DNA of 64,000 nucleotides from an uncultured Gammaproteobacteria bacterium (GCA_964435665.1 CAYSZW010000004.1:16284-80283); one strand, 5' to 3'; positions 7,616 through 24,213 are shown, counted from the stretch's first letter. Translations and numbers: made by a program. The notes: generated by a model not told the origin, from the sequence alone.

Positions 7616-7656
7616 TTACATTCTTTTAACAATTAAAAATTATAATTTGAATATAT

Positions 7657-8175: not shown

Positions 8176-8432
8176 TAAACCGTATGTCACGTTTGTTATC
8201 TTTAATTTTTTTACTATTACTTCCCGTCATATTCCTTTTTGACTTACTTGTTTTCTTTGGTACAAAAATGAATATAACCTGTTTAACGTGCGAGTTGCCT
8301 AACTATTTTAGAACGTCATCTTTATCTTTTGTGGTATTAAGCCAGAGTTTTGAGACGTTTTTAAAAAGAAAGATACAGTAGTCTATTGTTAAGTTTTTGA
8401 TTAATAAAATTGATCTTTTAATTAGGTCAAAA

Positions 8433-8441
8433 TGATATAAT
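8433..8441 (+). promoter_or_regulatory. Extended -10 (TGaTATAAT) ending 6 nt before the ATG of the 1347-aa gene
   Basis: TG is at 8433-8434, TATAAT at 8436-8441 and the ATG at 8448, which is the predicted +1. There is no SD-like purine run in between. Confidence 0.4.
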
Positions 8442-8447
8442 TATTAT

Positions 8448-11400
8448 ATGGCAGAAAATGAAGGTCGTTCACCGGCACCATTGGAAACACAGATAAAACA
8501 AGGATTTTCTTTAGAATGGGCCAAGGCAGATAGTGCAGATAAAAAGAAATCTCTCATGCAGCGGATAATGCAGAGGATTCGTGATATGGTTACTAAAGCA
8601 GATGAGTCTGAGAAAAATAAAACTGAAACTTCAGAAAAAGAAGCAAAAGAAGCTAAACAAGAAGCTGCTAAATCTGTTATTGAGTTTTTTCAATTTTTAA
8701 CTGGGAATGTGGGTCAAGTTTTAGATCCAGAAACTCTTAAGTCTCTTCCATTAAATGAATCACAAGTTTCATTTCTTCAAAATTTAGGGAAAATGAATCA
8801 AAATCAAGAATCTGCCGGATTAATTTCACAAATTGTAAAAAAAACTATAGATAATCCGGATTACCTAACTCTCTCCAAGCCTGGTGATCCAACAAAGTCT
8901 CAACTAGAACAAGATTTTGAAAAAGTTAAAAGTAATGAGCGTGCAAAGCACTATTTTATCTTAGGTTTAACAAAATTAGCAGCAGAAGGTAAGCTAAAAG
9001 ATGCAGAAGGAAAAAATCTTTCGATAGATGATGTAAATGCAAGATTCCCATATGTGAATGAAGAGAGCACAGAAACCAATAGTAAATCACAAACTGAAAA
9101 ACAAAACACACAAAATCGTGTGGAAGATGAGACAGAAGAATTTAATTTACCTCCAAGTCAACAAGGTAGAGGATTTGGTCGTAAACGAAATAAGGCAGAG
9201 GATCCAGTAAGATTAGCACGATATAAAGATATAATGGACAGATTGCGTAAAATTGATGATGTCCAATCTGTAGAGTTAAATGCAAAATTAGAAGCCAATA
9301 GACAAGCGATAAAAGATCTAGAAGAAAAAAATTTATCTAAAGAACAAAAACAACAAGAATATACAAAACTAAGTGAGGAACAAGCTGATCTGGATGAAGA
9401 GTCAAAAGTTCATTTTGATCAAGTTAATGAAGCTTTAAACTATTTAATAACTGGAGAATTTACTGGTTCGCCAGAAGAGAAAGCACAGATAGAACAATTT
9501 ATAAAAGACCGATTAAACAATCAAGATCCTGCATATTTGAATGAAGTTAAAGCTTTTATGCAAGAAGGTACAGGAACTCTTGATGGGACGTATGAAGGAT
9601 ATCAAGATTTAGCTGATAAAGTTAACAGTGACTATACAACCGAAGCTATTAAAACAAGAATAATAAAAAATGGGAGGATAGATTTGGAAGCTATACAAAG
9701 ATTGCAGGCAGATATTGAAGATGATATTGGCGTACTGTTCGAAACACTTTACAATAGTCCTAAAGGAAGTTTCGAAGAATCTTTTTCTTCCTATTCAGAA
9801 GGTCAAATGCTACGTAAAATAACACAACATTTAAGAGTTCAGATAAATCGCATATTGGAGGAAGTCCCTCGAGATAAAAGAGATCAGTTTAAACAAATAT
9901 TTAATGACATGATCATATCTCCAATTCAGCGTAGACCAGCATTAGAACGTATAGTACATCAGTATCAACAAGTTGGTGCAACTATTGATTTAGAAAAGTT
10001 ACGTGATATTTTGAAGACATACAATATATCATCTTTACAAGAATTTTATAACGATGATCTAAGTGCAACGATTAATGATTTAATGCCTTCATTTGTACAA
10101 CATTTATTTATTAAAAATGGAAATGAAATGATTAATAATTTTTTTCAGCTTGTTCAAGAGGAAGAAGAGATTGACAGTAAGATTGTTTTTGGGAAAAATG
10201 AAGGACGTAGGTCTAAAAAATTTGTTCTGAAATATAGACAAGAGTGTATAGATTATATGCACACTGTTATTAATGCTGCAAACAGAGCAAAAGGTAATAC
10301 TGATGAAATTTCTAAAGATCGAATAAATGCCCGTTTTTCTCGTGCATATCTGGATAATTTCCTTTTAACTTTACGAGGAATAAAAGTAATGTCTAAAGCA
10401 AATCCTATGTTCGAAAAATTCGGAGATCTGCCTTTCGCAAGCTTAATTACAGGAATTTTTAATCCATTAGCTGGATGGGGAAAGTTTGGACATAGAGGTC
10501 GTGGTCACCAAGAAAGTGGAGATGCAGAAACTACAGAATTTTCTGGTATGAATAACTTTGCTTTTAATGAAATTGCTGCACAAGAATATATTAAAAAATA
10601 TGGAGATGTATTTGACAATTTTCATCCGGCTGAGATGAAAAAAGAAGGTGATAAGAGAGTAATGTTTCAAGTATATCCAGACAATAAACAACTCATGGAA
10701 GATTTGAAAACAGGCCGTTGGGATGCATATTACACCATGGATGAAGTGTATAAGGGTATGGTTTTTGGAAATATAATCGATCAGCAATATTGGCCGTTTG
10801 CAGGGTTTAATAAAGTAGTACTACCACGTTTAGCGAAAGAATTATATAAGAAAGAACTAAACGAATTATCTAGGCAAGAGGCATTAGAGCTTAAATATCG
10901 TACTTCTGGGGTTGTTACTGCGTTTTGGAATGTGGAAGGGTATGCTTCTGATGATACAGAAAATATGTTTGTTCGTTATCAATATAATCAAGAAATTGCA
11001 AAAGAATTTGCTTCACGTATTAAGACAATGGGCCGAGAATTAACAGAAGAAGAAAGAAAGGTAATAAAGGAAGAGATTGTGGCTAAAAAAAAATATGAGT
11101 TTAGCAATATGGATTGGATTAAAGAAACAGCAAAATATACTAAAGGAGAAAAGCGTTTTGACAAAATTTTTGATGTGAAAATGGAAGGTAAAGACTCAAA
11201 AGTTGCTTTCCGTGAGTACAGAATGCATAGATTTAATTCATTAAAAGGAGAAGTGTTTCATCAGTTGTTATTAAAAGATCCAAATGCTTGGCTTGCAGAA
11301 ATGGTGCAAACATATCCTGAATTGGCTAAAGGTAAAGTACCATATACAGATAATAATGGTATAAACCATGAAGTTACTGCATCTGAGTTCTATTTTAATC

Positions 11401-12491
11401 TAGATGCAATACCAGATAGTTCTATACCAAAAGATCTCAAAGTTCAAAGAGATAGATTCCGTTTTAAAATACTCACCAAATTTAGAGGAAAAGAAGGAGA
11501 TTATTTAAGTAATGTGCCACATTTAAAAAAAATCATGGATTTTTATACCAAATTATATGAGACAGAATCTGACAAAGATACAGCACTCCTTAAATTAAGC
11601 GAAAATCTTACTACTGCGCGACAAATTGCAGTACAAGGTAGTGAATCTGCAATTAAAGATAATTATATAACGGATGATAATATTAGATCTTTAATGTTTG
11701 ATAAAAATGATGGCCTTATAACTTACTTTAATAATATGGTTGGAGGGGATGATAAAGAAAAACGCAAGAAATACTTTGGAGATGGAGAGCACGATTTAGG
11801 TGAAGTTAATGGATTTTATCAACGTTGGTCTTTTTCTAAAGAACAAGATAATCAATCAAATATTCTTCCAGAAGGAGATACAAACATGAAATATTTATTG
11901 GAAGTAAACGAAAATCCACAAGCATTAGATAGACGTCTAGGTACAGATATGGCTTTTGTTAAAGCTCAGGAAGTACTTAATAAAGTTCCAAGTGTTTGTA
12001 AAAAAGCAGCAGATTCAGATAATTTTGATTCTTGGTATGGAACAATTGAAGAACTTCACAAAGAAATGGCTGTTATTGCAGACGAGGATCAAGGTAAAGA
12101 ACAAAAATATCAGCAACTACTTTATCAGACCATATGTAATTGGTTCTCACTTGATAGCGATACTGAGAAAATGTTTATTGGTTTCTTAAATCAAATGAAG
12201 CTGGGTACAGACGCTTCTATGGCTAATTTAAAGTCTAAAAATATGTCTAAGTTTGTTCTCGATCAAGATAGTAGAAGGGAATATTTAATAAGATTACAGG
12301 ATAGAGCATATCTCAAAGGTAATTATGATGCAATTGGCGGTTGGGGTTTTGATACTGCTGAATTAGTTGCTGGAGTGAGCATGGCCGAGATATTTAGAAA
12401 ACAAGCTGTCTATGCTTTAATAGGAGCTGCTATTGTTACGGTTGCTACGGCTATTAAAGAAGGATATGAAGAGGAAATAGATGAGGATTAA
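8448..12491 (+). CDS. Giant (1347 aa) orphan protein, charged/helical, with a single C-terminal TM helix (tail-anchored topology)
   Basis: Long uninterrupted ORF. There is no N-terminal signal peptide and no Walker A or HExxH motif was found by eye. The only hydrophobic segment is AVYALIGAAIVTVATAI near the C-terminus, followed by an acidic tail. Confidence 0.7.
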   Translation: MAENEGRSPAPLETQIKQGFSLEWAKADSADKKKSLMQRIMQRIRDMVTKADESEKNKTETSEKEAKEAKQEAAKSVIEFFQFLTGNVGQVLDPETLKSLPLNESQVSFLQNLGKMNQNQESAGLISQIVKKTIDNPDYLTLSKPGDPTKSQLEQDFEKVKSNERAKHYFILGLTKLAAEGKLKDAEGKNLSIDDVNARFPYVNEESTETNSKSQTEKQNTQNRVEDETEEFNLPPSQQGRGFGRKRNKAEDPVRLARYKDIMDRLRKIDDVQSVELNAKLEANRQAIKDLEEKNLSKEQKQQEYTKLSEEQADLDEESKVHFDQVNEALNYLITGEFTGSPEEKAQIEQFIKDRLNNQDPAYLNEVKAFMQEGTGTLDGTYEGYQDLADKVNSDYTTEAIKTRIIKNGRIDLEAIQRLQADIEDDIGVLFETLYNSPKGSFEESFSSYSEGQMLRKITQHLRVQINRILEEVPRDKRDQFKQIFNDMIISPIQRRPALERIVHQYQQVGATIDLEKLRDILKTYNISSLQEFYNDDLSATINDLMPSFVQHLFIKNGNEMINNFFQLVQEEEEIDSKIVFGKNEGRRSKKFVLKYRQECIDYMHTVINAANRAKGNTDEISKDRINARFSRAYLDNFLLTLRGIKVMSKANPMFEKFGDLPFASLITGIFNPLAGWGKFGHRGRGHQESGDAETTEFSGMNNFAFNEIAAQEYIKKYGDVFDNFHPAEMKKEGDKRVMFQVYPDNKQLMEDLKTGRWDAYYTMDEVYKGMVFGNIIDQQYWPFAGFNKVVLPRLAKELYKKELNELSRQEALELKYRTSGVVTAFWNVEGYASDDTENMFVRYQYNQEIAKEFASRIKTMGRELTEEERKVIKEEIVAKKKYEFSNMDWIKETAKYTKGEKRFDKIFDVKMEGKDSKVAFREYRMHRFNSLKGEVFHQLLLKDPNAWLAEMVQTYPELAKGKVPYTDNNGINHEVTASEFYFNLDAIPDSSIPKDLKVQRDRFRFKILTKFRGKEGDYLSNVPHLKKIMDFYTKLYETESDKDTALLKLSENLTTARQIAVQGSESAIKDNYITDDNIRSLMFDKNDGLITYFNNMVGGDDKEKRKKYFGDGEHDLGEVNGFYQRWSFSKEQDNQSNILPEGDTNMKYLLEVNENPQALDRRLGTDMAFVKAQEVLNKVPSVCKKAADSDNFDSWYGTIEELHKEMAVIADEDQGKEQKYQQLLYQTICNWFSLDSDTEKMFIGFLNQMKLGTDASMANLKSKNMSKFVLDQDSRREYLIRLQDRAYLKGNYDAIGGWGFDTAELVAGVSMAEIFRKQAVYALIGAAIVTVATAIKEGYEEEIDED

Positions 12492-12536: not shown

Positions 12537-14177
12537 ATGGTGAAACGTTTTTTGCTTCTCTTATTAACTCTTGTAACTTTTTTCATGCTTACCTCCGTTA
12601 GTAGCGCAAATACTATAGATCCTCAAGATAGTAAAATAAAAAATTGTTTTGATACCGCTCCTGGTAATTATCTTGAATCTTATAATGCTGAAACCTATAA
12701 TCAAAATTTATTTGATTGTTTGAAGCGCGATTTAGTTCCAGACCATCCAACTTGGCAATGTGAATCATCCATTGATTGTCCGATTAAATTTGCAGAATCA
12801 GTTTGCGCAGAAGTTAATAATAGAATTTGGTATAGAAGAAATGTCTTTGTACAAAAATGTGAAACTTTAAAAGATCAATATCAAACTTTGTTTATAGAAA
12901 AAAATAAACTCGCACCCACTGTAGCACCAACTCCTACTCCAACAATAAATCAGAGTATTACCCCCACTCCAACCGCTATAACTAATAGTGTTTCAGCTAG
13001 TGATGAATGTATAGCTCTTATTACTCAAGATTGTCGTACAACTATGATTGCTCTGGATCGTTGTTACAATAATTTAAATGCAGGTAGTGGCGTTTGGTCA
13101 TGTCTGGATGAAAATAATCAAGATGTAGCAGATGCCAGATGTAAGGCATCTTTTACGAATCGTATTAGACAAAATGTCTATTCTAAATTTAATGAATACT
13201 GTGATGGGAACTATACTACGAGTGACACTCCTATAGGTAGTGGTGGCGTAAATGTATCACGAATTATTAACTATAGTACTTTAAGTGAGATATTTGATAA
13301 AAAGCTTAATATTAGAAGAAATAATGCTTTAGATCCATTTGATTTAGGACCAACTCCATATCCACCTACTCCAGCTATAATTGATAATAGATATTTAGAA
13401 AATTTAGTTATCCAAGATGATTTGGCTACCGATTCTGAATTGCTAGAGGATGCAAAAGAAACATTAACTTGTGGTTTTGCTGGAGTTGAGGGTAAAAATG
13501 TATGTTGCAGTAATACTATTAAAGATATAACTCCGAGTTTAAGCGGACAAGATGCTATAGCTCCACAAATAGATTGTGGATTTTGGCAAGGTGTATTTGG
13601 TGTTTGTGATCTGCCAGATTTTAGCCAACTTGCCAAAGATAAATTTACTGAATATTTTGAACAAAATAACATTGTTGGCAGTTTAAATGAATATATTGAT
13701 AAACAAGGTGAATTGCCACAATGTTTTATTGGAGTCCCTTCTACATCGACAGCTGCTGTATCTGCTATAAATGTAGCACCTGTATGTACATGTGAATTTG
13801 AGTCTGCTGCAGCTATTTGTCAACGTTATATTGATACTGATGACACAGATGCGTTAGCGAAGTGTAACACCTGTATGCAAAATAATGATATAGATGAAAA
13901 GAATTTTTATACGGCTCTAGGATGTATTGATACTAGTATAGATGGAATTATTACAATGGTATTTACTTTGGGATTAGGAATTTCTGGTACAACTGCTTTA
14001 TTTTGTATTATCTATGCAGCTTTTATTATGCAAACTTCTCAAAATAATCCAGAAAGGATACAAAAAGCACAAGAAACAATTACTTCTTGTATAACGGGAT
14101 TAATTCTAATTATTTTCTCAATATTTATTCTTCGTGTTATAGGAGTAGACTTGTTACGGATACCTGGATTTGGTTGA
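12537..14177 (+). CDS. Secreted Cys-rich protein with a PT-rich linker and a C-terminal T4SS-pilin-like (TrbC/VirB2-like) two-TM module
   Basis: Signal peptide MVKRFLLLLLTLVTFFMLTSVSSA, numerous Cys residues and a linker APTVAPTPTPT...TPTPTA. The C-terminal ~90 aa (nt ~13899-14177) form two TM helices around a polar loop (SQNNPERIQKAQETITS) and align with the 110-aa protein at 23881. Confidence 0.7.
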   Translation: MVKRFLLLLLTLVTFFMLTSVSSANTIDPQDSKIKNCFDTAPGNYLESYNAETYNQNLFDCLKRDLVPDHPTWQCESSIDCPIKFAESVCAEVNNRIWYRRNVFVQKCETLKDQYQTLFIEKNKLAPTVAPTPTPTINQSITPTPTAITNSVSASDECIALITQDCRTTMIALDRCYNNLNAGSGVWSCLDENNQDVADARCKASFTNRIRQNVYSKFNEYCDGNYTTSDTPIGSGGVNVSRIINYSTLSEIFDKKLNIRRNNALDPFDLGPTPYPPTPAIIDNRYLENLVIQDDLATDSELLEDAKETLTCGFAGVEGKNVCCSNTIKDITPSLSGQDAIAPQIDCGFWQGVFGVCDLPDFSQLAKDKFTEYFEQNNIVGSLNEYIDKQGELPQCFIGVPSTSTAAVSAINVAPVCTCEFESAAAICQRYIDTDDTDALAKCNTCMQNNDIDEKNFYTALGCIDTSIDGIITMVFTLGLGISGTTALFCIIYAAFIMQTSQNNPERIQKAQETITSCITGLILIIFSIFILRVIGVDLLRIPGFG

Positions 14178-14274: not shown

Positions 14275-15999
14275 TTAGGTACTTCTATCTTGAAGTGCTT
14301 CACGAATTGAATCGCTTGGATTTTCTGCTTTTAAGAAGTTTATAACCCTGCCAAACCCAGTAGCACCTTCTTCTTTATATTGTCCAAATTCACTTAAAAA
14401 GGATCTCGATCTTGTTAATAATCCCATCCCTCCTGCCAGTGCGACTCCAGCTCCACCAAGTAATTTGCCTGGAGTAATATTAAATGGTAAGTCTTCAACT
14501 CCAAATGTTTTCTTCACAAAGGCTATCATATCCGGTATTAAGAAAATTATACTAATAGCTACTAACATAACAAATCCATTAGCTTCAATTGAATAAAGAA
14601 AAGGTGGTCTCCACAATTCTCGATCTAAATTAAATACTCCATATAATGGCGCAGTAGAAGATATATTAGATATCATGCCAGCCGTCATTATAAGAATTGC
14701 TACCAAAGGAAAAGTGAGTAAGTTAAAAAACAATCCTTTAATCCAGTATGCAAATGTATTTCTTTCTGGCAATGCTTCAAACATAAGGATAAATGGTGAA
14801 AAAATAATTGAAATTAATATTTTTGTATAAGTAATAAACAGAAGGAAAAAGATTCTAAAGAATAAAAATAAAGTTGTGACAAAAACAAAGAAACTTAAAA
14901 TTAAGGGGAAAAGTATGCCCATTAATAATCCAAAAACAGCAAATGAAATAATTGCACCTATTCCAGTAGCTAACCATCCACCTATAACTGGAACAGGTCT
15001 AAGAATGTTTCCAGTAACAAAGTCATGTACTTGAGGATGTAAATTTAATATCAGAAACACAACGCCACTAAGTACTGTTCTTAATGTAAATTGTAATTCA
15101 TAAGGTACTAATGAAAGAATAGCTGAACCAGATTTCCAGATATCACCGTTGCCCACGACTTTACCAAATAAATTCCAACCAGTAGTATTAAAGATATCAC
15201 CTGCTGTAGCAGTAATATTAGCATTATTAATAGGTTGAGCCCATCCTAATGCAATAGCTACTTCTCTGGTGCTTACTGTATCAGTAGCAATATTCTGAAC
15301 AATAATACTACCTCCTAAACCCATAATTACATACATAATATCAATCAGGAACCCAGCTATTGGAAAGGAGAATGTAATAAGTATTAATGCCAATACAATT
15401 CTTGGTATTGCATTTTCTATTGCGATCACAGTTTGAGGGTTAATATTAGCTCTAAACATTATCATAAAGCCTATGCTAATCACTACAAGTACAAGTAATA
15501 AATAGGAAACATTTCTAAATATTTTCCAGATAGGTGCGAGAGGTTGTAATGAATAAAAACCAATACCTTGTGCATATGTCTGTGGTACAAATCCAGCTTC
15601 TTGCATACCTTCATAAGCCCATAAAACTCCTGAAGCAGGTGGATTGGCATATGGAGCAACGAAAATATTAGAAGCTTTAGTAACAAAACTTCGTTCAATG
15701 TAAGGTGCAGCTTCATCAGGATTATCAGTACAAGTTTCTCCTAAAGTTAAGCATAGAAATCCACTATATACAGCTAGTTGAGATTTCGTAATATCATCTT
15801 TTTGAAATTGAGGACTAGCAATGAAATCATAAAGCTCCATACGACTTTGTTCATATGCACTACTATGCAGTGTTATTTTATCTTTATTCATGAAGTATGC
15901 AAAAAGATAAAAAATAGTTATAAAAACGGAGATTATTATGGTGGCATTTCTCAGATAAAGGAGCCAAGTTCGGACAGCAGTATCTGCATTTTTAAACAT
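14275..15999 (-). CDS. Polytopic integral membrane protein (roughly 8-10 TM helices); VirB6/TrbL-like topology is a hypothesis only
   Basis: 574 aa. After the first TM there is an extracytoplasmic loop of ~130 aa, then densely packed hydrophobic helices. It is the last gene of the minus-strand operon 18665->14275. Confidence 0.6.
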   Translation of the reverse strand: MFKNADTAVRTWLLYLRNATIIISVFITIFYLFAYFMNKDKITLHSSAYEQSRMELYDFIASPQFQKDDITKSQLAVYSGFLCLTLGETCTDNPDEAAPYIERSFVTKASNIFVAPYANPPASGVLWAYEGMQEAGFVPQTYAQGIGFYSLQPLAPIWKIFRNVSYLLLVLVVISIGFMIMFRANINPQTVIAIENAIPRIVLALILITFSFPIAGFLIDIMYVIMGLGGSIIVQNIATDTVSTREVAIALGWAQPINNANITATAGDIFNTTGWNLFGKVVGNGDIWKSGSAILSLVPYELQFTLRTVLSGVVFLILNLHPQVHDFVTGNILRPVPVIGGWLATGIGAIISFAVFGLLMGILFPLILSFFVFVTTLFLFFRIFFLLFITYTKILISIIFSPFILMFEALPERNTFAYWIKGLFFNLLTFPLVAILIMTAGMISNISSTAPLYGVFNLDRELWRPPFLYSIEANGFVMLVAISIIFLIPDMIAFVKKTFGVEDLPFNITPGKLLGGAGVALAGGMGLLTRSRSFLSEFGQYKEEGATGFGRVINFLKAENPSDSIREALQDRST

Positions 16000-16035
16000 A
16001 GATTCATTCTACTGAATTTGCGTTATGAAAGTCAA

Positions 16036-16473
16036 TTACTCTTGTACCTCAGAGACTTCTACCCTTGGTGGAAGTGTAACTTGGTCAAGTGTGCGGTATT
16101 CAATTTTATATAAATCTTGATTTATATTTAAGTCTGTAAAGAAACGATTTACAGTCTGTACTGCAGCATTTTGATCACCTTGAAAATAAATAAGAAAGGT
16201 TCCACTTCTACTTTTATATTCCACAGTTATATCTTCAAATTTAATTGGATACAGTAATTCATTACGAATTTCTGGTGCGAGAGTTGGCACTATATAGTTA
16301 ATAACAACTGGTGTAATAGTGGGCAATGGTGAAGGTGTTACTGTAATAGGTAAACCATCTGGTCCTGTAGTCATTTGTAGTCTACTAATCATTACATAAA
16401 GAAATATGATTAATAGAATAATGCCGCCAATAATTAATATATATTTTTTATTATTCATATCTATAAAGTACAT
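16036..16473 (-). CDS. Small N-terminally TM-anchored protein (cassette partner of the SLT-like hydrolase)
   Basis: One TM helix (YILIIGGIILLIIFLYVMI), a Pro/Thr linker and a ~90-aa domain. The architecture parallels the ORF at 17360-17821. An alternative start at 16458 removes the overlap with the upstream gene. Confidence 0.6.
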   Translation of the reverse strand: MYFIDMNNKKYILIIGGIILLIIFLYVMISRLQMTTGPDGLPITVTPSPLPTITPVVINYIVPTLAPEIRNELLYPIKFEDITVEYKSRSGTFLIYFQGDQNAAVQTVNRFFTDLNINQDLYKIEYRTLDQVTLPPRVEVSEVQE

Positions 16474-17363
16474 TGGTGAATTATAAATTCACAATACGTA
16501 CGATTTCCTAAATGTTGAAATGGAGTTTTACATTCTCCAAAGTATCTTTTGCCAGCTTGAAAAATTGCATTTTGATCCCAATTCCTATTACCTGCTTGGG
16601 TTCCACTATCTTGTTTAAGTTTTTTTGCTGCAGCAAAAGTGCTGTCTCGTAAGTTACATACATTTGATTGATGACTGGCTCCATCATATTGATTTACCGC
16701 ATTGCCATATGAACCCCATGCATTAGGGCAAGAATTTAAACATTTTCCATTCCAACAGCATCGATTGCAAGAAGTTGAACCTCGTTCATCTGTTCCAATA
16801 GTCATTTGCATATGGCCTGCTGCAGAACAAGAATTCCATGGACAGTTTGGGATTTTTTGTCCAGGTTGAATATATTGATTAACTTGTTCAGGCGTATATT
16901 TTAAAACTGGAGTATATTCCATGTATGAAATTGCTTCAATAACACAGGTAGGAACTGAAACTTTTTGCCCGACATAATCATAAAAAGTTTGTATAGCTGT
17001 AAATGTTTGGTCTACCGGTTTTCCTCCAGGTGTTTGTGATGGAATAACATTTGTTGGAAATGGTGTTAATGAATTAAGTGGAGTTGGAATTGATGAAGGA
17101 TTTGTAGATGGCCCTGTAGAGTTGTTTCTAGGAGTACCTTCTGATCCATTCGTTCCACCTGTTGGTCTTTTAAAAAAAATATCTAAAAAATCTTCAAAAA
17201 TTTCATTAGAAGTTTTTTGCGTATCTCCAGGATTATAACAACGACCATCACCACTATCCATACAAGGTCTATCCGGGTTTTCCAGAGAGCCTGGCTGAGC
17301 AAATACAATATTATGTGAAAAAATAAATAAAATTAAGAGTAATAGAGTAATAATGTATTTCAT
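16461..17363 (-). CDS. Secreted Cys-rich protein: shared N-terminal module plus a lysozyme-like / SLT-like (lytic transglycosylase) C-terminal domain
   Basis: Signal peptide. The module [41 protein letters not shown] is shared with the 292-aa paralog. EAISYMEY ... SAAGHMQMT ... AGKRYFG resemble SLT motifs I-III (ES / GLMQ / AYNAG). The SLT call is motif-level only. Confidence 0.5.
   Translation of the reverse strand: MKYIITLLLLILFIFSHNIVFAQPGSLENPDRPCMDSGDGRCYNPGDTQKTSNEIFEDFLDIFFKRPTGGTNGSEGTPRNNSTGPSTNPSSIPTPLNSLTPFPTNVIPSQTPGGKPVDQTFTAIQTFYDYVGQKVSVPTCVIEAISYMEYTPVLKYTPEQVNQYIQPGQKIPNCPWNSCSAAGHMQMTIGTDERGSTSCNRCCWNGKCLNSCPNAWGSYGNAVNQYDGASHQSNVCNLRDSTFAAAKKLKQDSGTQAGNRNWDQNAIFQAGKRYFGECKTPFQHLGNRTYCEFIIHQCTL
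17172..17300. repeat. 129-nt repeat copy A (encodes the shared N-terminal module of the 300-aa protein)
   Basis: Aligned by eye to 18471-18599 with 10 mismatches in 129 nt (~92% identity) and no gaps. Flanking coding sequence is unrelated. Confidence 0.85.
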
Positions 17364-17821
17364 AAAGTTGACATTTCCATTATATTAAACTTCTCTTGAG
17401 GAATAGCTGAGAACTGGGCATTTATAAATGAATTAAAGTTATTTCTTGACTCAGTAATTGGATCTAAAATAATGACATCATATTGAAAGGTTTCGTAGTT
17501 ATATGTAATAGTAAAACCATTTCCATTAAATGGAGAAAGTTTATATAGTTCGGTATTTTGGTCAATTTCTGCTTGTTCTTCTGTGGTAAATTCTGGTTCC
17601 ACAAATCCTGTAAAATCTCCAGTTACTTCTGGTGTAGGAGCTTGTCCAATTGGAATAATTGAATTAGTACTACCTCCATTACGATTCATACTGAATAGAA
17701 GGGTAGCAATAAGTAATATAACTACAAATATAATTAAAGTAATAATAATTATTTTTTTATATTTTAAAATTGTATCTTGGTCCATATTATTTTCTTCTAA
17801 CTGCAGCTGCAAATGTAACAA
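17360..17821 (-). CDS. Small N-terminally TM-anchored protein (cassette partner of the C39-like peptidase)
   Basis: One TM helix (IIIITLIIFVVILLIATLLF) followed by a ~100-aa domain. A 4-nt ATGA overlap joins it to the downstream gene. An alternative start at 17785 (MDQDTILKYKK) lies 1 nt after the upstream stop. Confidence 0.6.
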   Translation of the reverse strand: MLHLQLQLEENNMDQDTILKYKKIIIITLIIFVVILLIATLLFSMNRNGGSTNSIIPIGQAPTPEVTGDFTGFVEPEFTTEEQAEIDQNTELYKLSPFNGNGFTITYNYETFQYDVIILDPITESRNNFNSFINAQFSAIPQEKFNIMEMSTL

Positions 17822-18665
17822 CTTGTAAATCTTTTATATATCTGTAATTTAATGGTCTTGTGTTACGGTCACCAAAAGTTGAATCTAATCCATAAATATC
17901 ATACTCTTTTCCATTTTTTACAATGTTTGTGATAACAAAAAAATGACCAACAGTTTTATTACCTAATGTAAAATTACCACCAGCTAAGATCCAAGAACCT
18001 GATTTTACAAATGGCATTAAATTATCTGCTACTTCTTGTGGTGTTCCTTTTTGAAAACCTGGAACTATTTCTGAGCGAAAACCTTCACCATTTAGAGCAA
18101 ACATTGCACCTTGAAGAGTACTTCCAGCACAGCTTGCATATCTCGTTTCACCATATTTTGAACCATAATATTTTGAAATAATACTCGGAGGTGTCGCATT
18201 AGGGTCTCCAAGATTAGCAACAATATTAGATACAGCAGAAGGTCCACAACCTGCATAGCAGATACTACAGCCATCCGGCATCATGATACTTTTATAATCA
18301 CATTGACGATTCATAATGTAACTACCTGGAACTGGAGTCGCAACAGGTGATAAGTTAGGTGTTGTTTGGTTAGGGAATTGTGTAGCACCAGATGGTCGAG
18401 GTGTTAATGTATTATTAGATCCGGAGTTATTTGTTGGATTAGAACTAGAGCCATCATTTTTAGGAGGTTTAAAAAAAATATCTAAAAAATCTTCAAAAAT
18501 TTCATTAGAAGTTTTTTTCTTATCTCCAGGATTATAACAACGACCATCACCACTATCCATACAAGGTCGATTGGGATTTTCCAGATTGTCAGGCTGAGCC
18601 AAAATTAAATTGGGGCTTAGGAAAAGTAAGAAAATAGAGATTGTGAATATAACTAATAGTTTCAT
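17787..18665 (-). CDS. Secreted protein: shared N-terminal module plus a papain-fold Cys peptidase (Peptidase_C39_2 / CHAP-like) domain
   Basis: Signal peptide and the same module as the 300-aa protein. Candidate Cys-His-Asp triad: [25 protein letters not shown]. The pattern also matches the C-terminal domain of the FtsEX-linked hydrolase at 54417. Confidence 0.55.
18471..18599. repeat. 129-nt repeat copy B (encodes the shared N-terminal module of the 292-aa protein)
   Basis: About 92% identical to 17172-17300. Confidence 0.85.
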
Positions 18666-18666
18666 G

Positions 18667-18695
18667 TTGACTTTTATAAAATACTTTCACATAAT
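18667..18695 (+). promoter_or_regulatory. Putative promoter TTGACT-17-CATAAT with the ATG at predicted +1
   Basis: The -35 is at 18667-18672 and the -10 at 18690-18695, with a 6-nt spacer to the ATG at 18702. It sits in the 36-nt divergent gap next to the minus-strand operon start (18665). Confidence 0.45.
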
Positions 18696-18701
18696 GAATA
18701 C

Positions 18702-21700
18702 ATGTCGAACATGTTTGATTTTATACGAAAAAAGCCATCTAATGCAAATCCAAATGGAGATGTATCAATAAATACAAATTCTCAAGTAAGTTCTGTGAGT
18801 GATACGCCACAGCCAATATCGGCACCAGTAACTCAATCATATAATGGTATTGGAAACCCACCAAGTGGACAGTCATTTAATGGAATTGGTACTCCACCAA
18901 ACGGCCAGTCATACAATGGTATCGGAAATCCTCCACAAGGTAATTCTTATAATGGTATTGGATCAACACCATCCGGACAAGATCCATATAACGGTGTAGG
19001 TTCAGCTCCAGCACCAAAAATGAATGACACCATGTCATCCCCTTCAAATGGACAAGATAGCAATGGTTCTATGAAACCAAAAGAAGATAAACCTGTATTT
19101 GATCAAATGCCAAAAGAAAAGAATGAATGGCAAGGTTTAGATTCATCAAAAAAAGATGCTAATCAAAATAAACCAACCGATCAAAAATCTAATAATCAAA
19201 GCGCAGATCAAAATAAACAATCAATGAATAATAATCAAAATGCACAAAAAGATCAAAATAATAAAAATCAGGATCAAAAGAATGTAGATAATAAAAATAA
19301 TTCTAATGCTCCAAAAGGTGATGCTCTTAAATCAAATATAAATGATAAAAAGCGAAATGATTTAGATATCATGACACACTTAACACAACGATCTAATAAA
19401 GTATTTTTAGAAGCAAATAATAAAGCAAAAGAATTAAAAAACACGTATGTTGATAGTGAACATTTATTACATGGATTACTTTCTGATGGAGAAATATATA
19501 ATGCATTTGTTGAATTAAAAATTCAACCTCAACTAATTGAACAAGAATTAGATAAGGTATATAAAAAAGAAACTAATAATAACCCACCACAAATTGCTCC
19601 TCGTGTAAAACAGATAATCAGTAATTCTCTAATTGTTGCACGTAAAATGGGTTATGAATTTATTTCACCAGAACATTTGTTACTTGCAATGTTTGATGAA
19701 GGTGAAGGGTTAGGTGCACGAATTTTAGTAAAACTTGGCTTGAAGAAAGAAGATTTAAATAAAAAAGTAACTGGTAAAAAAGAAGGTCTTGAAGGTAAAG
19801 ATGCAAAAGCACAACAAAAAGCAAAATCTGCATTAGAACAATACACAATTGACTTAACAGCAAGAGCTGCAAATGGTGAATTAGATCCAGTTGTTGAACG
19901 ATCTGACGTTATAGAACGTGTTGTCCATATTCTTTCAAGAAGAATTAAGAATAATCCTGCACTTATTGGAGAACCAGGTGTTGGTAAAACCGCTGTGGTA
20001 GAAGGGCTCGCAGAACGTATTGTTGCAAAACAAGTTCCAGAAAGTCTTTTAAACAAAAGAATTCTCCAATTAGATTTAGCAGGAGTCGTTGCTGGAGCCT
20101 CTCATAGAGGAGAATTTGAAGAGCGAATGAAAAATATTGTTGATGAACTTAAGGGTGCAAAAGGCGAAATAATTATGTTTATTGATGAAATGCACATGAT
20201 GATGGGTGCTGGCGGTGGAGATGGCACAATTGATGCTTCAAATTTTATAAAACCTGCTCTTGCCCGTGGTGAAGTTCAGTTTATTGGTGCAACTACCATT
20301 ACAGAATATAGAAAATATATAGAAAAAGATGCCGCTCTTGAACGAAGATTTCAAACAGTAGTTGTTCCTGAACCTTCACAAGAAGCAGCAATTAAAATGT
20401 TAAAGGCTGCAAAAGATAAGTACGAAGCATTTCATAAAGTCAAAATTCCAGAAGAAACAATCGAATTAGCAGTCAAACTTTCAAAAAGATATATTGGAGA
20501 TCGTTTCCTTCCAGATAAGGCATTTGATCTTATGGATGAAGCAGCAGCGGCAGTTAGATTACCATTAATTTCATTACCAGAAGAGATTCAATCGTTAGAA
20601 ACGCGTATCGCACAAATTCAACAAGAAGTTGATGAAGCAGAAAAAGGCGGGGAAAAAGTGAAAGCAAGAATAGGTCGCTCAAAAATTGATGATGTAAAAG
20701 CAACACTAAAGTCAAAGCAAGATGAATATAACATGAAGAAAGCCAGTACAACTACAGAAGTAACAGATGAAATTGTTAAAGATATAGTTGCAAAACGAAC
20801 TGGAATTCCTGTTTCAAGAATTTCTTCAACAGAAGGAGATAAATTAGTTAATTTAGAAGATATCATTCACAAACGAATGATTGATCAAGAAAATGCTGTT
20901 AAGTCTGTCTCACAAGCTATTAGAAGAGGACGAGCAGGATTAAAGTCAACAAATAGACCAATTGGAAGTTTTGTATTCCTAGGACCAACAGGTGTAGGTA
21001 AAACAGAACTAGCAAAAACAGTCTCAGAAGTGCTTTTTGATGAAGATGATGCAGTAATCCGTTTTGACATGACAGAATATATGGAACGTCATGAAGTTGC
21101 AAAACTTCTTGGACCTCCTCCAGGTTATGTTGGATATGAAGAAGGTGGAAAGCTTACAGAAATGGTTCGCAGAAAACCTTATTCCGTAGTCTTATTTGAC
21201 GAGGTAGAAAAAGCACATCCAGATATTTTCAATATCTTACTTCAAATTTTGGATGATGGACGTTTAACTGATAATAAAGGTCGAACAATTTCATTCAAAA
21301 ACACTGTTGTTATTTGTACTTCAAACATTGGTACAAAACTTATTCAAGAAGAAATGCTTAAGAGTGGAAAAACTGAAGTAAGTGAACCAACAATGATGTC
21401 TACATATGTATTTACGCCAAGAGGTAGAGAATTATTAACTATTGGTAACAAGTACTTTGAAAGAGATGGAGGCAATGTACAAGCATTAAATGCCCAAATG
21501 GATGCTTCAAAACAGCCACAACAAGCAGATGCAAAACCAGAAGATGCAACAAAAGCACCAACATCATCATGGGCTAATCACCAATTGAATGAATATTTTG
21601 CAGGACAAAAAGTTGAAGGTAAAATGCCTGAACCAATTAAAGAAGAAACTCAAGCAAATCCTGATGAACCAGCAACAGAAAAACCATTAGAAGAATTACC

Positions 21701-23039
21701 TGAAAAACCAAATGAGTCAATGAAGTCAGTTGGCTTTCCAATGATGGGTTACGATACACATGCAATTGCTGCAAATGGTTTAGAAATTGTCACAAAAGGC
21801 AATACACTATTCTCACGAAGTGCAACAACTGCAAAAGTATGGAATGTAACATCTCTTATAGAATATTTTAAAGATGGTGTTGTCATTAATGCTTTACCAG
21901 ATGCACCAGATGAACAATTGCCAACTGTTAAATTAAAAACACATGCTTTTAGTCCTACTGAAGAAGAAATCGTTACATTTAAAGACAGATATTGGAAAAG
22001 AAAAACAAATTCTACAGATTGGGAAACAGGTTACTTAAAAGATTATTTTAAAGATCAACCAATAACAGGAGAAATGACTCTTCCAACAACACATTGGGAT
22101 ATCCATACATTCTCACCTAATGGAAAAGAAGTAATTATAGTAGCAAATGATATTTGGTTTAGAGAAGGTACAGGTCCATGGAAGAAACAAGCATTAACTG
22201 AATATTTTGGAAAAGATTTCCCATTAGAACAAGAAGTAAATGCAAACCAAAAGGTAGAAGAAGAAAACGATACAAAGAAATATTCTCTTATTAAAGATAA
22301 GGTAATGAATGAACTCTTGAAGTTTTTCCGACCAGAGCTTGTAAATCGTTTTGATGAAGTTATTATCTTTGAGCCACTTAAGTTTATTCACATGATTGAG
22401 ATTGTTAAACTACAACTCAAAGGTTTAACCAAACTATTAGAAGAACAAGAATTAGGTTTTTCAGCAACAGATTCAGCTATTAAAGAAATTGTCCGTTCTG
22501 GTTTTGATCCAATCTTTGGAGCTCGACCATTACGAAGAGCAATTCAAAAATTAGTTGAGAATCCAATTTCAGAATTAATTATTGCTAAAAAAGTAACAGC
22601 AGGAGATACAATTATTGTTGATTTTAATGGTGAAGAATTTGTATTTAATGTTGAACACACAGAGCGAAAAGCAGTTTCAGGTGAAACCAAATCTGAAGGT
22701 ACAAATAAAGATGAAGTTGAAAAAATGTTTTTCTGTGAAAAATGTGCAAATACATTTACCACAAAAGTAAAATCTAATGCAACAACTGTCTGTTCAAAAT
22801 GTGCAAATAAAAATGTAACAGAAATTTCTGACCAATCACAACAAACAGTAAAAGATGCAACAACAGAAAAAAAGAATGAAGCAAAAACAGATATGAATTC
22901 TACTGCAGATCAAAAGAATTCACAGAATCCTATGAGTTCAGGTTCAAACGATATGAATACAATGCCATCAATGAATCCTACACCAAATACTCAAAATTCT
23001 GGAGATACAATGAATCAGCAGATGAATACCATGTCATAA
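18702..23039 (+). CDS. Atypical ClpC/ClpB-family double-AAA+ protein (1445 aa) with low-complexity termini, a large repeat insertion in D2 and a C-terminal zinc ribbon
   Basis: Clp_N repeats ([19 protein letters not shown]). D1 Walker A GEPGVGKT and Walker B MFIDEMH. Short ClpC-length M-domain. D2 Walker [13 protein letters not shown], Walker [11 protein letters not shown] and sensor-1 [10 protein letters not shown]2-small [18 protein letters not shown] and [10 protein letters not shown]. Insertion of ~316 aa at nt 21333-22277. CxxC...CxxC at 22731-22812. Confidence 0.85.
18837..19010 (+). repeat. In-frame 36-nt tandem repeat (12-aa unit S-Y/F-N-G-I-G-x-P-P-x-G-Q), 4 full copies plus 1 degenerate
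   Basis: Translation: [58 protein letters not shown]. Confidence 0.85.
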
Positions 23040-23880: not shown

Positions 23881-24213
23881 ATGAACAATACTCTTGCTCA
23901 AGGTTTACAGATTCAACCAAAAGGTGGTGCAGCTGTTACTGTAACAGGTCCACTTGAAGGAATTAATAATTTAGGTGATTTAATTAATGTTCTCATGTCC
24001 TTTTTAGTACCTTTTGCTGGTATTATTCTCTTTTTTATTCTTATCTGGGGAGGATACGATATTTTAATGTCTCAAGGAGAAGCTGATAAAGTAGAATCAG
24101 GAAAAAATAAAATTACTGCTGGAATTATTGGTATTGTATTGCTTGTTCTTTCTTACTTAATTACCAATCTATTTGGATATATATTTGGACTAGATAGAAG
24201 TTTTTTTCAATAA
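23881..24213 (+). CDS. T4SS-pilin-like (TrbC/VirB2-type) small membrane protein
   Basis: 110 aa. Two TM helices flank a polar loop (SQGEADKVESGKNKITAG). It aligns with the C-terminus of the 546-aa protein through shared I[WY]..[YF]....SQ.......K..IT..I.G..L...S. Confidence 0.55.
   Translation: MNNTLAQGLQIQPKGGAAVTVTGPLEGINNLGDLINVLMSFLVPFAGIILFFILIWGGYDILMSQGEADKVESGKNKITAGIIGIVLLVLSYLITNLFGYIFGLDRSFFQ

Follow-up and report, generated by a model that had tools for sequence, protein, structure and literature searches.

Two exported proteins that share a nearly identical N-terminal module, carry different putative wall hydrolase domains and are each followed by a small membrane protein raise the question of whether such a locus encodes weapons with their cognate immunity proteins or enzymes that serve an envelope machine. 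The locus lies in a 64,000-nucleotide stretch of DNA (the whole of which is called the window here), and the source organism is an uncultured ultra-small bacterium. The original prediction read the layout as that of polymorphic toxin/immunity loci; the alternative it gave was that the enzymes are dedicated to wall remodelling for the neighbouring apparatus and that the small proteins serve to anchor them. We compared the locus with ten related Microgenomatia loci in which the flanks are conserved.

A tight operon in a pilin gene cluster

All four cassette genes are packed on the minus strand as a single tight operon. The features of the locus are:

17787-18665, minus strand: p292 (292 aa), an ORF with a Sec signal peptide (residues 1-23), the shared module (23-66), a Pro/Ser/Thr/Asn-rich linker and a putative C39_2-type peptidase domain (about 115-292)
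18471-18599, minus strand: p292 copy of the module, with a putative gene-conversion core at 18471-18568
17360-17785, minus strand: S1, a small bitopic membrane protein of probably 141 aa (listed as 153 aa; longer ORF 17821-17360)
16461-17363, minus strand: p300 (300 aa), with a Sec signal peptide, the shared module, a linker and a putative Cys-rich lysozyme/SLT-like (GH23-like) domain (about 120-300)
17172-17300, minus strand: p300 copy of the module, with a putative gene-conversion core at 17172-17269
16036-16473, minus strand: S2, a small bitopic membrane protein, probably starting with the ATG at 16458 and then 140 aa long (listed as 145 aa)
16042-18427, minus strand: replaceable segment, without DNA homology to the closest relative (L001) by blastn
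14275-15999, minus strand: 574-aa polytopic membrane protein, the final gene of the operon, present in every related locus
12537-14177, plus strand: 546-aa secreted Cys-rich protein that ends in a T4SS_pilin (VirB2-like) domain, its gene running convergently to the operon
8448-12491, plus strand: 1347-aa protein that by eye looks mostly helical and seems to end in a TM segment, adjoining the large pilin
23881-24213, plus strand: 110-aa T4SS_pilin protein beyond the ClpB-like gene (Pfam PF18895, 33.6 bits)

The ORFs were found where they had been predicted, all on the minus strand (p292 18665-17787, small gene 17821-17360, p300 17363-16461, small gene 16473-16036), together with the matching junction geometry, both hydrolase stops lying 1-2 nt before a small-gene ATG. 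The TAA of p292 is separated by 1 nt from an ATG, which makes 17785 the likely true start of S1, and the TAG of p300 by 2 nt from the ATG at 16458, the likely start of S2. The S1 TGA overlaps the p300 ATG (ATGA), and S1 is translationally coupled to p292 and p300; the spacing between S2 and the 574-aa gene is 36 nt. S1 has an N-in TM helix and an ectodomain of about 100 aa. The proposed plan of one TM helix plus an outside domain holds for both small proteins, but their sizes, predicted as 153 and 145 aa, are likely to be 141 and 140 aa.

The gene order is the same in the ten related loci: a small T4SS_pilin gene, a ClpB-like gene, two to three units of hydrolase plus small TM gene, the polytopic protein, a large T4SS_pilin gene and a protein of ~1300 aa. 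The 110-aa T4SS_pilin gene has the same position in L001, L004, L007, L009, L013 and L015, the 1347-aa protein has orthologues in L001 (63% identical) and L004 (57%), and co-linearity with the two T4SS_pilin genes and the polytopic protein is kept down to a ClpB identity of 59%. The 546-aa protein matches Pfam PF18895 with 27.3 bits (cut-off 26.6) and the NCBIfam Mbov_0395 pilin-like model at E 6.5e-6, under the cut-off of that model. Because of the T4SS_pilin domains and the synteny, we assigned the cluster to a pilin/T4SS-like apparatus. The available text of PMC12102498 and PMC10633639 describes the T4SS of Patescibacteria as a monoderm MPF_FATA type with added arrays of VirB2-like pilins, and that of PMC12102498 states that in Microgenomatia homologues of VirB1 and VirB6 can seldom be detected, the scarcity of VirB6 possibly reflecting divergence. 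Only its position and topology make the 574-aa protein a candidate for a VirB6-type channel component; its nine orthologues gave no Pfam match, a nine-sequence profile gave no PDB match, and VirB6 homology was not detectable. Among the ORFs of the 64-kb window that were scanned with Pfam, none was a VirB4 or VirD4 ATPase. Among the relatives, a long-form SLT-like homologue in L012 adjoins a DUF87/TrwB_AAD_bind/TraG-D_C ATPase, and in L006, a Pacebacteria genome, a domain of the second lysozyme-like type (labelled Lyz3) lies between the pilins and the polytopic protein. The housekeeping genes ClpB, yidC, jag and leuS are nearby, and the window also contains a separate division-type hydrolase adjoining FtsX.

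Two putative wall hydrolases with a shared module

The original prediction assigned a papain-fold Cys peptidase-like domain to p292. No direct family match supports this, p292 having no Pfam match at E ≤0.1 and none among NCBIfam, PHROGs or PDB sequences; support comes from its homologues. L004 has an orthologue at the same position that is 32% identical along the whole of p292 (E 8e-44) and that matches Pfam Peptidase_C39_2 (PF13529) at E 4.5e-10 with 40.7 bits (cut-off 24), and Q121, C140, H241 and D261 are invariant across six homologues. The AF2 model of p292 is poor (pLDDT 48), and its top Foldseek matches are papain-like, with staphopain first at E 3e-3, a value not counted as significant. 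The C-terminal domain is a putative papain-like Cys peptidase of the C39_2 type.

For p300, predicted to carry a Cys-rich SLT/lysozyme-like domain, support likewise comes from the fold and from conserved residues but not from direct family matches, with no Pfam (including SLT), NCBIfam, PHROGs or PDB sequence match. The AF2 model has a pLDDT of 79.5 overall and above 90 in the C-terminal domain, and its informative Foldseek PDB matches all belong to the lysozyme superfamily (MltF, g-type lysozyme, GH23 chitinase, phiKZ gp144 and MltE), although the best E value, 0.44, is non-significant. E149, S180, G183, M185, Q186 and Y274, which include an S-x-x-G-x-M-Q motif, are invariant among 41 homologues; putative catalytic residues are kept in both families, as a check of the prediction had called for. 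One family member is named 'Transglycosylase SLT domain-containing protein' in UniRef, and remote homology links the Lyz3 domain to that of p300 (hhalign 77%, E 2e-5). The fold matches are weak though consistent, and suggest that p300 ends in a putative divergent lysozyme/SLT-like (GH23-like) domain.

The module, a short hairpin followed by an acidic amphipathic helix, has no Pfam or NCBIfam match. Its two 129-nt copies (17172-17300 and 18471-18599) align without gaps and with exactly 10 mismatches, as had been reported, and a 98-nt core (17172-17269 versus 18471-18568) contains two differences, both non-synonymous, and no synonymous one. The window contains two occurrences of an exact 42-mer from the module; the expectation from 100 shuffles is none. 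The high identity is limited to the module, because the signal-peptide DNA of the two genes is only 56% identical and the linker DNA 49%; past the module the proteins were proposed to be unrelated, and they show no BLAST similarity beyond about residue 116-121. Within genomes the modules are 92, 84 and 81% identical at the nucleotide level, compared with 58-78% between genomes, and in 6/10 genomes the best match of a module is the paralogue in the same genome. The module of L007 is 92% identical within its genome and at most 33% identical to anything else, and near-identical orthologues bear another module allele that is again common to both paralogues. Judged from these comparisons, the module has been homogenised between paralogues in several genomes, i.e., it evolves in concert, which supports the recent recombination or gene conversion suggested initially. 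That the identity stems from selection acting on the DNA or RNA as such, for instance on an internal promoter, is highly improbable: both copies do contain a sigma70-like TGGATA-N17-TATAAT with an extended -10 TG, and the core lacks synonymous differences, but promoter-like sites in the region equal the shuffle expectation (31 versus 28.9), the module alleles of L004, L001 and L007 differ there in protein and DNA and yet are homogenised within their own genomes, and a different allele in both paralogues of near-identical orthologues is the pattern that conversion or recombination predicts.

Cassette replacement and the small membrane partners

Three layouts occur among the relatives: C39 plus SLT; CHAP plus Lyz3; and CHAP plus Amidase_2 plus Lyz3. 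The first slot always holds a Cys peptidase type (C39-like or CHAP-like) and the last slot always a lysozyme-like domain (SLT-like or Lyz3). The search for further module-plus-variable-domain proteins in related genomes, proposed with the original prediction, succeeded: the module was found on five types of C-terminal domain (C39-like, SLT-like, Lyz3, CHAP-like and Amidase_2). The replaced stretch begins just past the first module and ends with the stop codon of the last small gene. Between the window and L001, DNA homology is lost in the linker of the first hydrolase gene and returns at the last small-gene stop, the p300 module and linker (17049-17282), which still match L001 by blastn, being the exception. 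The 5' ends of the first genes, C39 in the window and CHAP in L001, are orthologous, with 77% nucleotide identity in the signal peptide. Close relatives (ClpB 75-84% identical) bear non-homologous enzymes and partners, and the divergence of the C39 cassette greatly exceeds that of its flanks, p292 and its L004 counterpart sharing the 32% identity given above compared with 77% for ClpB and 71% for the SLT protein. The partner co-varies with the catalytic domain: S1 follows C39, S2 follows SLT, a Big_5-containing partner follows CHAP, and Amidase_2 and Lyz3 are each trailed by distinct partner genes. A tblastn search with all cassette proteins against the window and the ten loci found no orphan cassettes or remnants, and presence/absence variation was not seen, the array lying at the same place in every related locus, very distant ones included. 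The predicted layout of conserved N-terminal module, variable C-terminal wall hydrolase and adjacent small gene is real, and polymorphic among related genomes.

Positional orthologues of S1 sit after the C39 gene in L004, L007, L009, L011 and L010, and orthologues of S2 after the SLT-like gene in L004 (51% identical), L011, L009, L007 and L010; in L010 the gene order is rearranged, yet each hydrolase still has its small gene behind it. Between S1 and S2 there is at most remote homology (BLASTP E 0.01 across the TM segment and linker; hhalign 44%), so that 'tandem duplicated cassettes' overstates the case: only the module is clearly common to both cassettes. In distant relatives (L008, L012) the hydrolases are long, fused forms without a small gene, in which a TM anchor at the N-terminus is followed by a ~65-aa juxtamembrane domain, then by an amphipathic helix and a linker, and finally by the catalytic domain, whereas the window, L004, L007, L009, L010 and L011 have a short hydrolase plus a small TM gene. 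On this comparison of gene layouts, hydrolase and small partner show split/fused complementarity. The two long forms have N-domains that are homologous to each other (97.7%). In hhalign comparisons S1 matched the long-form N-domain with 71-85% probability (E 4e-5 to 6e-6) and S2 with 58% (E 1e-4), and S1, S2 and the partner of the CHAP cassette matched the long-form N-domain or one another at 44-81%; of 30 reversed sequences used as a control, 0/30 exceeded 5% probability. In an HMM-versus-sequence search just one S1 member was significant against the long-form N-domain (E 4e-4), and the Lyz3 and amidase partners showed no similarity to it by hhalign. The partners of the C39, SLT and CHAP cassettes appear to have one common, weakly detectable domain.

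Possible roles of the exchangeable hydrolases

With moderate confidence, we favour the view that the operon encodes the peptidoglycan-breaching, VirB1-like enzyme pair of a pilin/T4SS-like envelope apparatus of Patescibacteria (class Microgenomatia). The first slot would supply a Sec-exported papain-like Cys peptidase or amidase (of the C39_2 type in the window) and the last slot a Sec-exported lysozyme/lytic-transglycosylase-like glycan cleaver, together providing the two activities that are joined in one VirB1-like protein of monoderm conjugative T4SSs. In the lineage of the window, the long-form unit would have been split into a hydrolase with a cleavable signal peptide and the module, and a separate bitopic partner that has the TM anchor and probably, in the C39, SLT and CHAP cassettes at least, also a remote homologue of the juxtamembrane domain. 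The enzymatic activities, docking, the role of the partner and whose wall is cut are inferred: the module helix may be a docking element, and the exported hydrolase may be held or regulated at the producer membrane by the small partner, the apparatus or both, a tethering that would confine wall cleavage to the place at which a cell wall is crossed by the pilin/polytopic-protein machine. The module may double as a recombination handle, gene conversion between paralogues keeping it uniform and recombination just past it swapping the catalytic domain and partner gene as a unit.

VirB1-like hydrolases such as TraG of pIP501, PrgK of pCF10, CwlT of ICEBs1 and TcpG of pCW3 combine the two kinds of activity that are proposed here, a glycan-cleaving one of the lysozyme/SLT type and a Cys-His peptidase, and are described in the available text of PMC12102498 as products of T4SS-linked genes that are membrane-tethered and open the wall locally. 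The long-form relatives bear an N-terminal TM anchor, as these four proteins do. The VirB1-like enzymes differ in having both activities in one polypeptide (SLT/muramidase plus CHAP or NlpC/P60) rather than in two proteins. The putative peptidase of the window is C39_2-like instead of CHAP or NlpC/P60 (it is CHAP-like in sister genomes), and the window proteins have no Pfam SLT/CHAP match. Cleavable signal peptides, the shared N-terminal module, a separate small TM partner for each enzyme and the exchange of catalytic domains between close relatives also set the present system apart, as does a cluster with T4SS_pilin proteins but no VirB4/VirD4. A parallel in gene content is 'Ca. Southlakia epibionticum' (Saccharibacteria, class Saccharimonadia, as opposed to Microgenomatia), a patescibacterium with a T4SS-like system and pilin arrays in which, according to the available text of PMC12102498 and PMC10633639, peptidase and lysozyme homologues downstream of virB4 are essential and such a pair is proposed as a VirB1 replacement; that text does not mention a shared module, partner genes or cassette swapping. 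For a partner acting as regulator rather than as inter-strain immunity there is precedent, by description, in the T4SS-associated lysozyme-type autolysin SagA of Brucella, kept in check by a dedicated inhibitor, PhiA, which is a periplasmic protein of a diderm (PMC8334348), and in the muramidase PrgK, which is self-regulating (mBio 2024 study, as cited in the available text of PMC12102498). The alternative named in the original prediction fits better than its main proposal, but alone it leaves cassette turnover unexplained: a pure housekeeping role of making a hole in the own wall explains neither the non-homologous enzymes of close relatives nor why partners co-vary with the catalytic domain instead of the module.

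It is possible, though doubtful, that the cell exports the hydrolases to attack competitors or the wall of a host or prey, as weapons targeted by the module, with the small TM proteins as cognate immunity. Polymorphic toxins (CdiA-CT/CdiI, Rhs and LXG, described by Zhang, Aravind and colleagues) have a conserved N-terminus, displaceable C-terminal domains, a downstream cognate gene and breakpoints at the boundary. The present locus has the same combination of conserved N-terminal part, swapped C-terminal domains and co-varying downstream gene: a single module is joined to five hydrolase domains, a C-terminal domain is displaced jointly with its downstream gene (between breakpoints right past the module and at the small-gene stop, behind orthologous 5' ends in the window C39 and L001 CHAP genes), the small gene follows the catalytic domain in all cases, and the C39 cassette has diverged well beyond its flanks. 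In monoderms, immunity proteins against extracellularly acting toxins usually combine a TM anchor with an ectodomain (as in TelC/TipC), and the S proteins have this form. T4SS-delivered wall-hydrolase effectors with adjacent immunity genes are also known (X-Tfe/X-Tfi; PMC6536674, PMC10933484), and the bactericidal ones of Xanthomonas/Stenotrophomonas resemble the present proteins in their variable wall-degrading domains, conserved module, adjacent small cognate and T4SS link (PMC6536674, PMC8740702, PMC10933484). Their module, XVIPCD, is however C-terminal and binds VirD4 in the cytoplasm, whereas the present one is N-terminal, follows a Sec signal peptide (by inspection) and ends at residue 66 of 292 or 300; X-Tfi are periplasmic lipoproteins of a diderm, and the present organism is monoderm. 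Unlike in polymorphic toxins, the domains are wall hydrolases only and are replaced within a functional class at each slot; neither the window nor the loci contained orphaned remnants of catalytic domains or partners, and in place of a known toxin-trafficking or dedicated export domain there is a plain Sec signal peptide, as seen by inspection. The array is moreover fixed in the pilin/polytopic-protein cluster in all ten informative related loci, and the apparent common partner domain is cis-fused to the hydrolase in long forms, which would be unusual for immunity against different toxin folds. We found no evidence for the hydrolases as toxins or for the small proteins as immunity proteins, and the immunity role is unproven and somewhat disfavoured.

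In an unlikely intermediate reading, the cassettes determine the host range of an episymbiont: the pilin/T4SS-like apparatus would display or deliver the hydrolases via their shared, genome-specific docking module, and the hydrolases would cut the host or prey wall, while the membrane-anchored partner, a split-off cis-regulatory domain, would protect the producer's own. Exchange of catalytic domain plus partner at the module site would then adapt a lineage to the peptidoglycan chemotype of its host, and the locus would be part of the way from an assembly enzyme of the VirB1 type to a genuine effector/immunity pair. That these are ordinary housekeeping autolysins for growth or division, near the pilin genes by chance and with the module as a wall or membrane retention tag, is improbable. 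Every bacterium with peptidoglycan requires such enzymes, housekeeping genes are among the neighbours, and the locus is chromosomal and not distinct in composition; against this, co-linearity with the pilin genes and polytopic protein is strict even at 59% ClpB identity, a T4SS-type ATPase adjoins one long-form homologue, the window already has its division-type hydrolase beside FtsX, and non-homologous replacement between close relatives is not expected of housekeeping enzymes.

Read as the VirB1-like enzyme pair of the pilin apparatus, the locus looks more like a wall-breaching toolkit with exchangeable parts than like a proven toxin/antitoxin pair, and it gives concrete candidates for the missing wall-breaching enzymes of Patescibacteria, which would serve an essential T4SS-like machine and possibly the tapping of hosts. 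Its organisation is unusual, with an N-terminal putative docking module that is uniform per genome, partners that resemble split-off anchors, and in-place exchange of domains in close relatives. Should the turnover mirror the wall that is attacked, cassette type could predict the host range of uncultured lineages, and the split/fused series would show a route from assembly enzyme to effector/immunity pair; otherwise the locus remains a clean example from nature of gene conversion and domain displacement outside classical toxin systems.

A probable hydrolase operon between pilin and ClpB-like genes

Five closely packed genes occupy positions 18665-14275 on the minus strand of the window, whose G+C content is ~32% throughout. 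They encode two secreted, probable hydrolases (p292 and p300), each followed by a small bitopic membrane protein (S1 and S2, respectively), and a polytopic membrane protein.

Genes of the hydrolase operon
18665-17787, minus strand: p292 (ORF)
Likely ATG 17785, 1 nt past the p292 stop, minus strand: S1, 141 aa (153 aa from an upstream TTG according to the ORF finder)
17363-16461, minus strand: p300, its ATG overlapping the preceding TGA
Likely ATG 16458, 2 nt past the p300 stop, minus strand: S2, 140 aa
From 36 nt beyond S2, operon region to 14275, minus strand: 574-aa polytopic membrane protein

By inspection, p292 and p300 both start with a Sec-type signal peptide, and S1 and S2 alike consist of a Lys-rich N terminus, a single transmembrane (TM) helix and an ectodomain of ~100 aa. 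An Rfam scan of the window returned two tRNAs only, both away from the operon, and a promoter/terminator scan was uninformative (31 sites versus 28.9 expected). A mobile-element or prophage origin was rejected, because all relatives have conserved chromosomal genes on the flanks and the composition is uniform.

Convergent with the operon lies the gene for a secreted, Cys-rich protein of 546 aa that ends in a T4SS_pilin domain (PF18895, marginally above threshold), a 110-aa T4SS_pilin protein is encoded beyond the ClpB-like gene, and yidC and jag are located upstream. The scanned window ORFs include neither VirB4 nor VirD4. Homology of the 574-aa protein to VirB6 could not be detected, even with a nine-sequence profile, and a genome-contig scan with this protein returned a single distant locus.

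Other features of the window
18702-23039, plus strand: ClpB-like protein
8448-12491, plus strand: 1347-aa protein
32676-33851, minus strand: GH18 glycosyl hydrolase
51856-52749, minus strand: CAP-domain protein
53174-54493, minus strand: lamin-tail-domain protein
54417-55721, minus strand: 434-aa Peptidase_C39_2 protein
55687-56577, minus strand: FtsX
56574-57251, minus strand: ORF, presumed FtsE

The ClpB-like gene sits between two pilin sub-clusters in every related locus and is divergent from the hydrolase operon, with start codons 36 nt apart. Its 1445-aa product, compared with the 853 aa of the NCBIfam ClpB profile that it matched, stays under the cut-off of that profile (912 versus 1232 bits); by eye, SYNGIG-type repeats occur in its low-complexity N terminus, repeated motifs in an insertion of ~330 aa, and a zinc-ribbon-like CxxC...CxxC in its C-terminal tail. 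The 1347-aa gene directly follows yidC-jag and is kept beside the large pilin in related loci; its product, without family match and by eye mostly helical with one C-terminal TM segment, may be an unrecognised apparatus component. GH18, CAP and lamin-tail domains are typical of surface or secreted proteins. PIN-domain and nucleotidyltransferase genes with a small upstream ORF (12601-13563 in the related locus L007) form an insertion that separates the large pilin from the ~1300-aa gene in this relative only, and may be toxin-antitoxin-like.

Catalytic domains of p292 and p300

Direct family searches with p292, p300, S1 and S2 gave nothing useful in Pfam, NCBIfam, PHROGs or PDB sequences, and the domain assignments of both hydrolases are therefore indirect. 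The gene at the p292 position in the related locus L004 encodes a protein with 32% identity to p292 over its full length (E 8e-44), and this positional counterpart matches Pfam Peptidase_C39_2 above threshold (E 4.5e-10). Gln121, Cys140 (AGCGP), His241 (GHFF) and Asp261 are invariant in a six-sequence alignment of the family. The AF2 model of p292 was poor (pLDDT 48, shallow alignment) and its best Foldseek matches were papain-like proteases (staphopain, E 3e-3), which we took as weak support only. The domain is probably a papain-like Cys peptidase or amidase.

All 45 homologues of p300 come from Microgenomatia-type assemblies. Its AF2 model is confident over residues 120-300, and the informative Foldseek matches, although non-significant (best E 0.44), all belong to the lysozyme superfamily (MltF, goose-type lysozyme, GH23 chitinase, phiKZ gp144 and MltE); a BFVD fold search gave no significant matches. 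The family invariants Glu149, S180-x-x-G-x-M-Q and Tyr274 resemble GH23 motifs, and one family member is labelled as an SLT-domain protein in UniRef. We take the p300 domain to be, probably, a diverged lytic transglycosylase or lysozyme. Lyz3, a second lysozyme-like domain type met in related loci, has no family match of its own; hhalign shows it to be remotely homologous to the p300 domain (77%, E 2e-5), with the HYMEG motif of Lyz3 aligning with the region of the putative catalytic Glu. Profile searches against PDB sequences produced noise only for the C39-like (A4), SLT-like (A3), Lyz3 (A6) and polytopic-protein (A8) alignments; weak matches of A4 to CdiA-CT and DUF4150 chains, which covered the His-Asp strand only (E ~0.3-0.5), were set aside.

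The 434-aa protein of the window, no close relative of p292, combines a signal peptide, a long region that by eye is coiled-coil-like and, at its C terminus, a Peptidase_C39_2 domain (E 5.7e-7). Its gene lies directly downstream of FtsX, with the presumed FtsE upstream, a PcsB/EnvC-like arrangement in which C39_2 replaces CHAP or LytM. This suggests that C39_2 domains of this organism have a wall-hydrolase role.

A shared module on replaceable cassettes

The original prediction had aligned the near-identical segment that follows the signal peptide in p292 and p300 (the module) and proposed its recent recombination or gene conversion, together with a polymorphic layout. The alignment is exact (17172-17300 versus 18471-18599, 129 nt each, 10 mismatches and zero gaps). 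Within a 98-nt core there are two differences, both non-synonymous, and zero synonymous ones, and one 42-mer of this core is present in two copies in the window and in none of 100 shuffles; the flanking DNA is 56% identical in the signal peptide and 49% in the linker. A module profile run against 1.84 billion representative proteins recovered six real matches only, on C39-like, CHAP-like and Lyz3 domains, and a JGI metagenome scan with the module gave no matches. Including SLT-like and Amidase_2 proteins, its domain partners amount to five types in a narrow clade. Within one genome, the paralogues' module DNA shows 92% (window), 84% (L004) and 81% (L001) identity, compared with 58-78% between genomes, and for the module protein the same-genome paralogue is the best match in 6/10 genomes. 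The L007 module is quite different from the others, yet it is 92% identical between both L007 genes at the protein level. Orthologues in the p292-family database cluster (members at least 90% identical to the representative) carry the module allele PYMIDGEGNGVNPGD, as does the SLT paralogue in one genome, and p292 and p300 of the window both bear a different allele. Such a pattern is the signature that repeated gene conversion or recombination would leave. Both proposals thus hold up, the first on within-genome identity above that between genomes and on alleles common to paralogues, the second on one module borne by five domain types, with C-terminal domain and partner replaced.

The p300 model contains a helix (residues 52-64) that spans most of the module's acidic amphipathic segment, and by eye distant and long-form members have a similar helix ahead of the linker. 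The module Cys residues 34 and 42 (p292/p300; about 18566-18540 and 17264-17238) are either both present, as in p292, p300 and the L001 Lyz3 protein, or both replaced (Tyr...Gly/Val allele). The pair lies at the base of a short hairpin in the p300 model, which suggests that a disulfide-stapled allele alternates with an unstapled one. A sigma70-like TGGATA-N17-TATAAT with extended -10 TG lies in both module cores (18559-18531 and 17260-17232, minus strand) and would offer another explanation of the conserved DNA; it is probably there by chance, given that the number of sites matches the one expected from shuffling.

We mapped the limits of the replaceable unit by blastn between the window and L001, its closest relative. 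A continuous 78% match starts beyond the ClpB-like gene, spans the intergenic region and the p292 signal peptide and module, and ends at 18428, inside the p292 linker. Homology comes back for the p300 module and linker only (17282-17049), matching the L001 Lyz3 gene, and resumes at 16041, the S2 stop, on into the polytopic gene. The first array genes therefore have orthologous 5' ends (signal-peptide DNA 77% identical) but different 3' domains, C39 versus CHAP. Remnants of alternative cassettes were found neither in the window nor in related loci.

S1 and S2 are position-specific orthologue families. Every hydrolase of the rearranged locus L010 still precedes its small gene, so the cassette unit as originally drawn, hydrolase plus small gene, is right. 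For the same reason we rejected a pairing of S1 with the downstream p300 as a long gene split at the ATGA overlap. A VirB8-like identity of the small proteins was dropped because the conserved domain spans only ~65 aa. That domain may recur as the N-domain of long, fused hydrolases, and the N-domains of both long forms are clearly homologous to each other (hhalign 97.7%).

Profile-profile comparisons of the small proteins (hhalign probability and E-value, expanded profiles)
S1 versus long-form N-domain: 71%, E 4e-5
S2 versus long-form N-domain: 58%, E 1e-4
S1 versus CHAP partner: 81%, E 1e-5
S1 versus S2: 44%, E 2.4e-4

Reversed-sequence controls exceeded 5% probability in 0/30 cases, and the Amidase_2 and Lyz3 partners showed no similarity in the hhalign comparisons. 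An HMM-versus-sequence search with the long-form N-domain found one S1 protein significant and no others, so the homology claim rests on profile-profile comparison. The small gene is always present with short hydrolases and never with long ones (8 loci). Together with the profile matches, this moderately suggests that the small proteins are the split-off anchor/juxtamembrane part of an ancestral membrane-tethered hydrolase.

Array configurations and function of the locus

From related genomes we obtained ten informative loci. The gene order, which goes from the small pilin and ClpB-like gene through the hydrolase array and polytopic protein to the large pilin and ~1300-aa protein, is conserved across genomes with ClpB identities to the window of 84% down to 59%. 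The arrays take four configurations.

Configurations of the hydrolase array
A: [C39-like + S1][SLT-like + S2]; window, L004, L007, L009 and L011, rearranged in L010
B: [CHAP-like + Big_5-containing partner][Lyz3 + partner]; L013, partial in L015
C: as B, with an extra [Amidase_2 + partner] mid-array; L001
D: two long fused proteins, no small genes; L008, a single such protein in L012

Configuration D proteins comprise a TM anchor, the ~65-aa N-domain, an amphipathic helix, a linker and an SLT-like or C39-like domain. The A, B and C genomes are roughly equally related among themselves (ClpB 75-84% identical). The first slot always holds a Cys peptidase type and, given the remote homology of Lyz3 to the p300 domain, the last slot is always lysozyme-like.

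In L012, a 733-aa DUF87/TrwB_AAD_bind/TraG-D_C ATPase (3422-5623, plus strand) is followed after ~380 nt by the long-form SLT-like protein P0031 (6001-7317, plus strand), the only direct T4SS-type ATPase adjacency seen. In L006 (Pacebacteria), a protein of 979 aa that ends in a Lyz3-type domain (5778-8717, plus strand) lies between two genes that are pilin-like by eye and the polytopic protein, and a nearby 1318-aa protein (15131-19087, plus strand) ends, by eye, in an M23-like HxH motif. Wall hydrolases therefore accompany the polytopic-protein cluster, with apparent pilin genes, beyond Microgenomatia.

Two studies (PMC12102498; PMC10633639) describe a monoderm-type (MPF_FATA) T4SS plus VirB2-like pilin arrays in Patescibacteria, VirB1 and VirB6 as seldom detectable in Microgenomatia, and a peptidase and a lysozyme beside virB4 as essential in S. 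epibionticum; according to the former, monoderm VirB1-like proteins carry SLT and CHAP domains on one membrane-anchored protein (PMC12102498). On balance, we think it probable that the operon is a split, two-protein version of Patescibacteria VirB1-like wall enzymes, with partners. An apparatus-only model leaves turnover and the co-variation of partner and catalytic domain unexplained.

The original prediction of an effector/immunity locus captures the real polymorphism of the array. We find it doubtful, since a classical polymorphic toxin locus differs from this one, in which replacement is slot-specific, the array is always present and at one locus, neither the window nor the related loci contain orphan cassettes, and several cassette types appear to have a partner domain in common, which relatives carry in cis on the hydrolase itself. 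An immunity function of the small proteins is somewhat disfavoured. A hybrid, in which enzymes directed at the host wall are paired with a partner that arose from a cis-regulatory domain and protects the producer, appears improbable, and would be the most interesting outcome. Both options for S1 and S2 have precedents: as dedicated regulator-type partners of a wall enzyme they would resemble SagA/PhiA (PMC8334348), and as immunity proteins adjacent to T4SS-linked wall-hydrolase effectors they would resemble X-Tfe/X-Tfi (PMC6536674, PMC8740702, PMC10933484). Under the favoured reading of split VirB1-like wall enzymes, what is new would be the organisation of VirB1-type, T4SS-associated hydrolases as exchangeable, module-tagged cassettes with split anchors.
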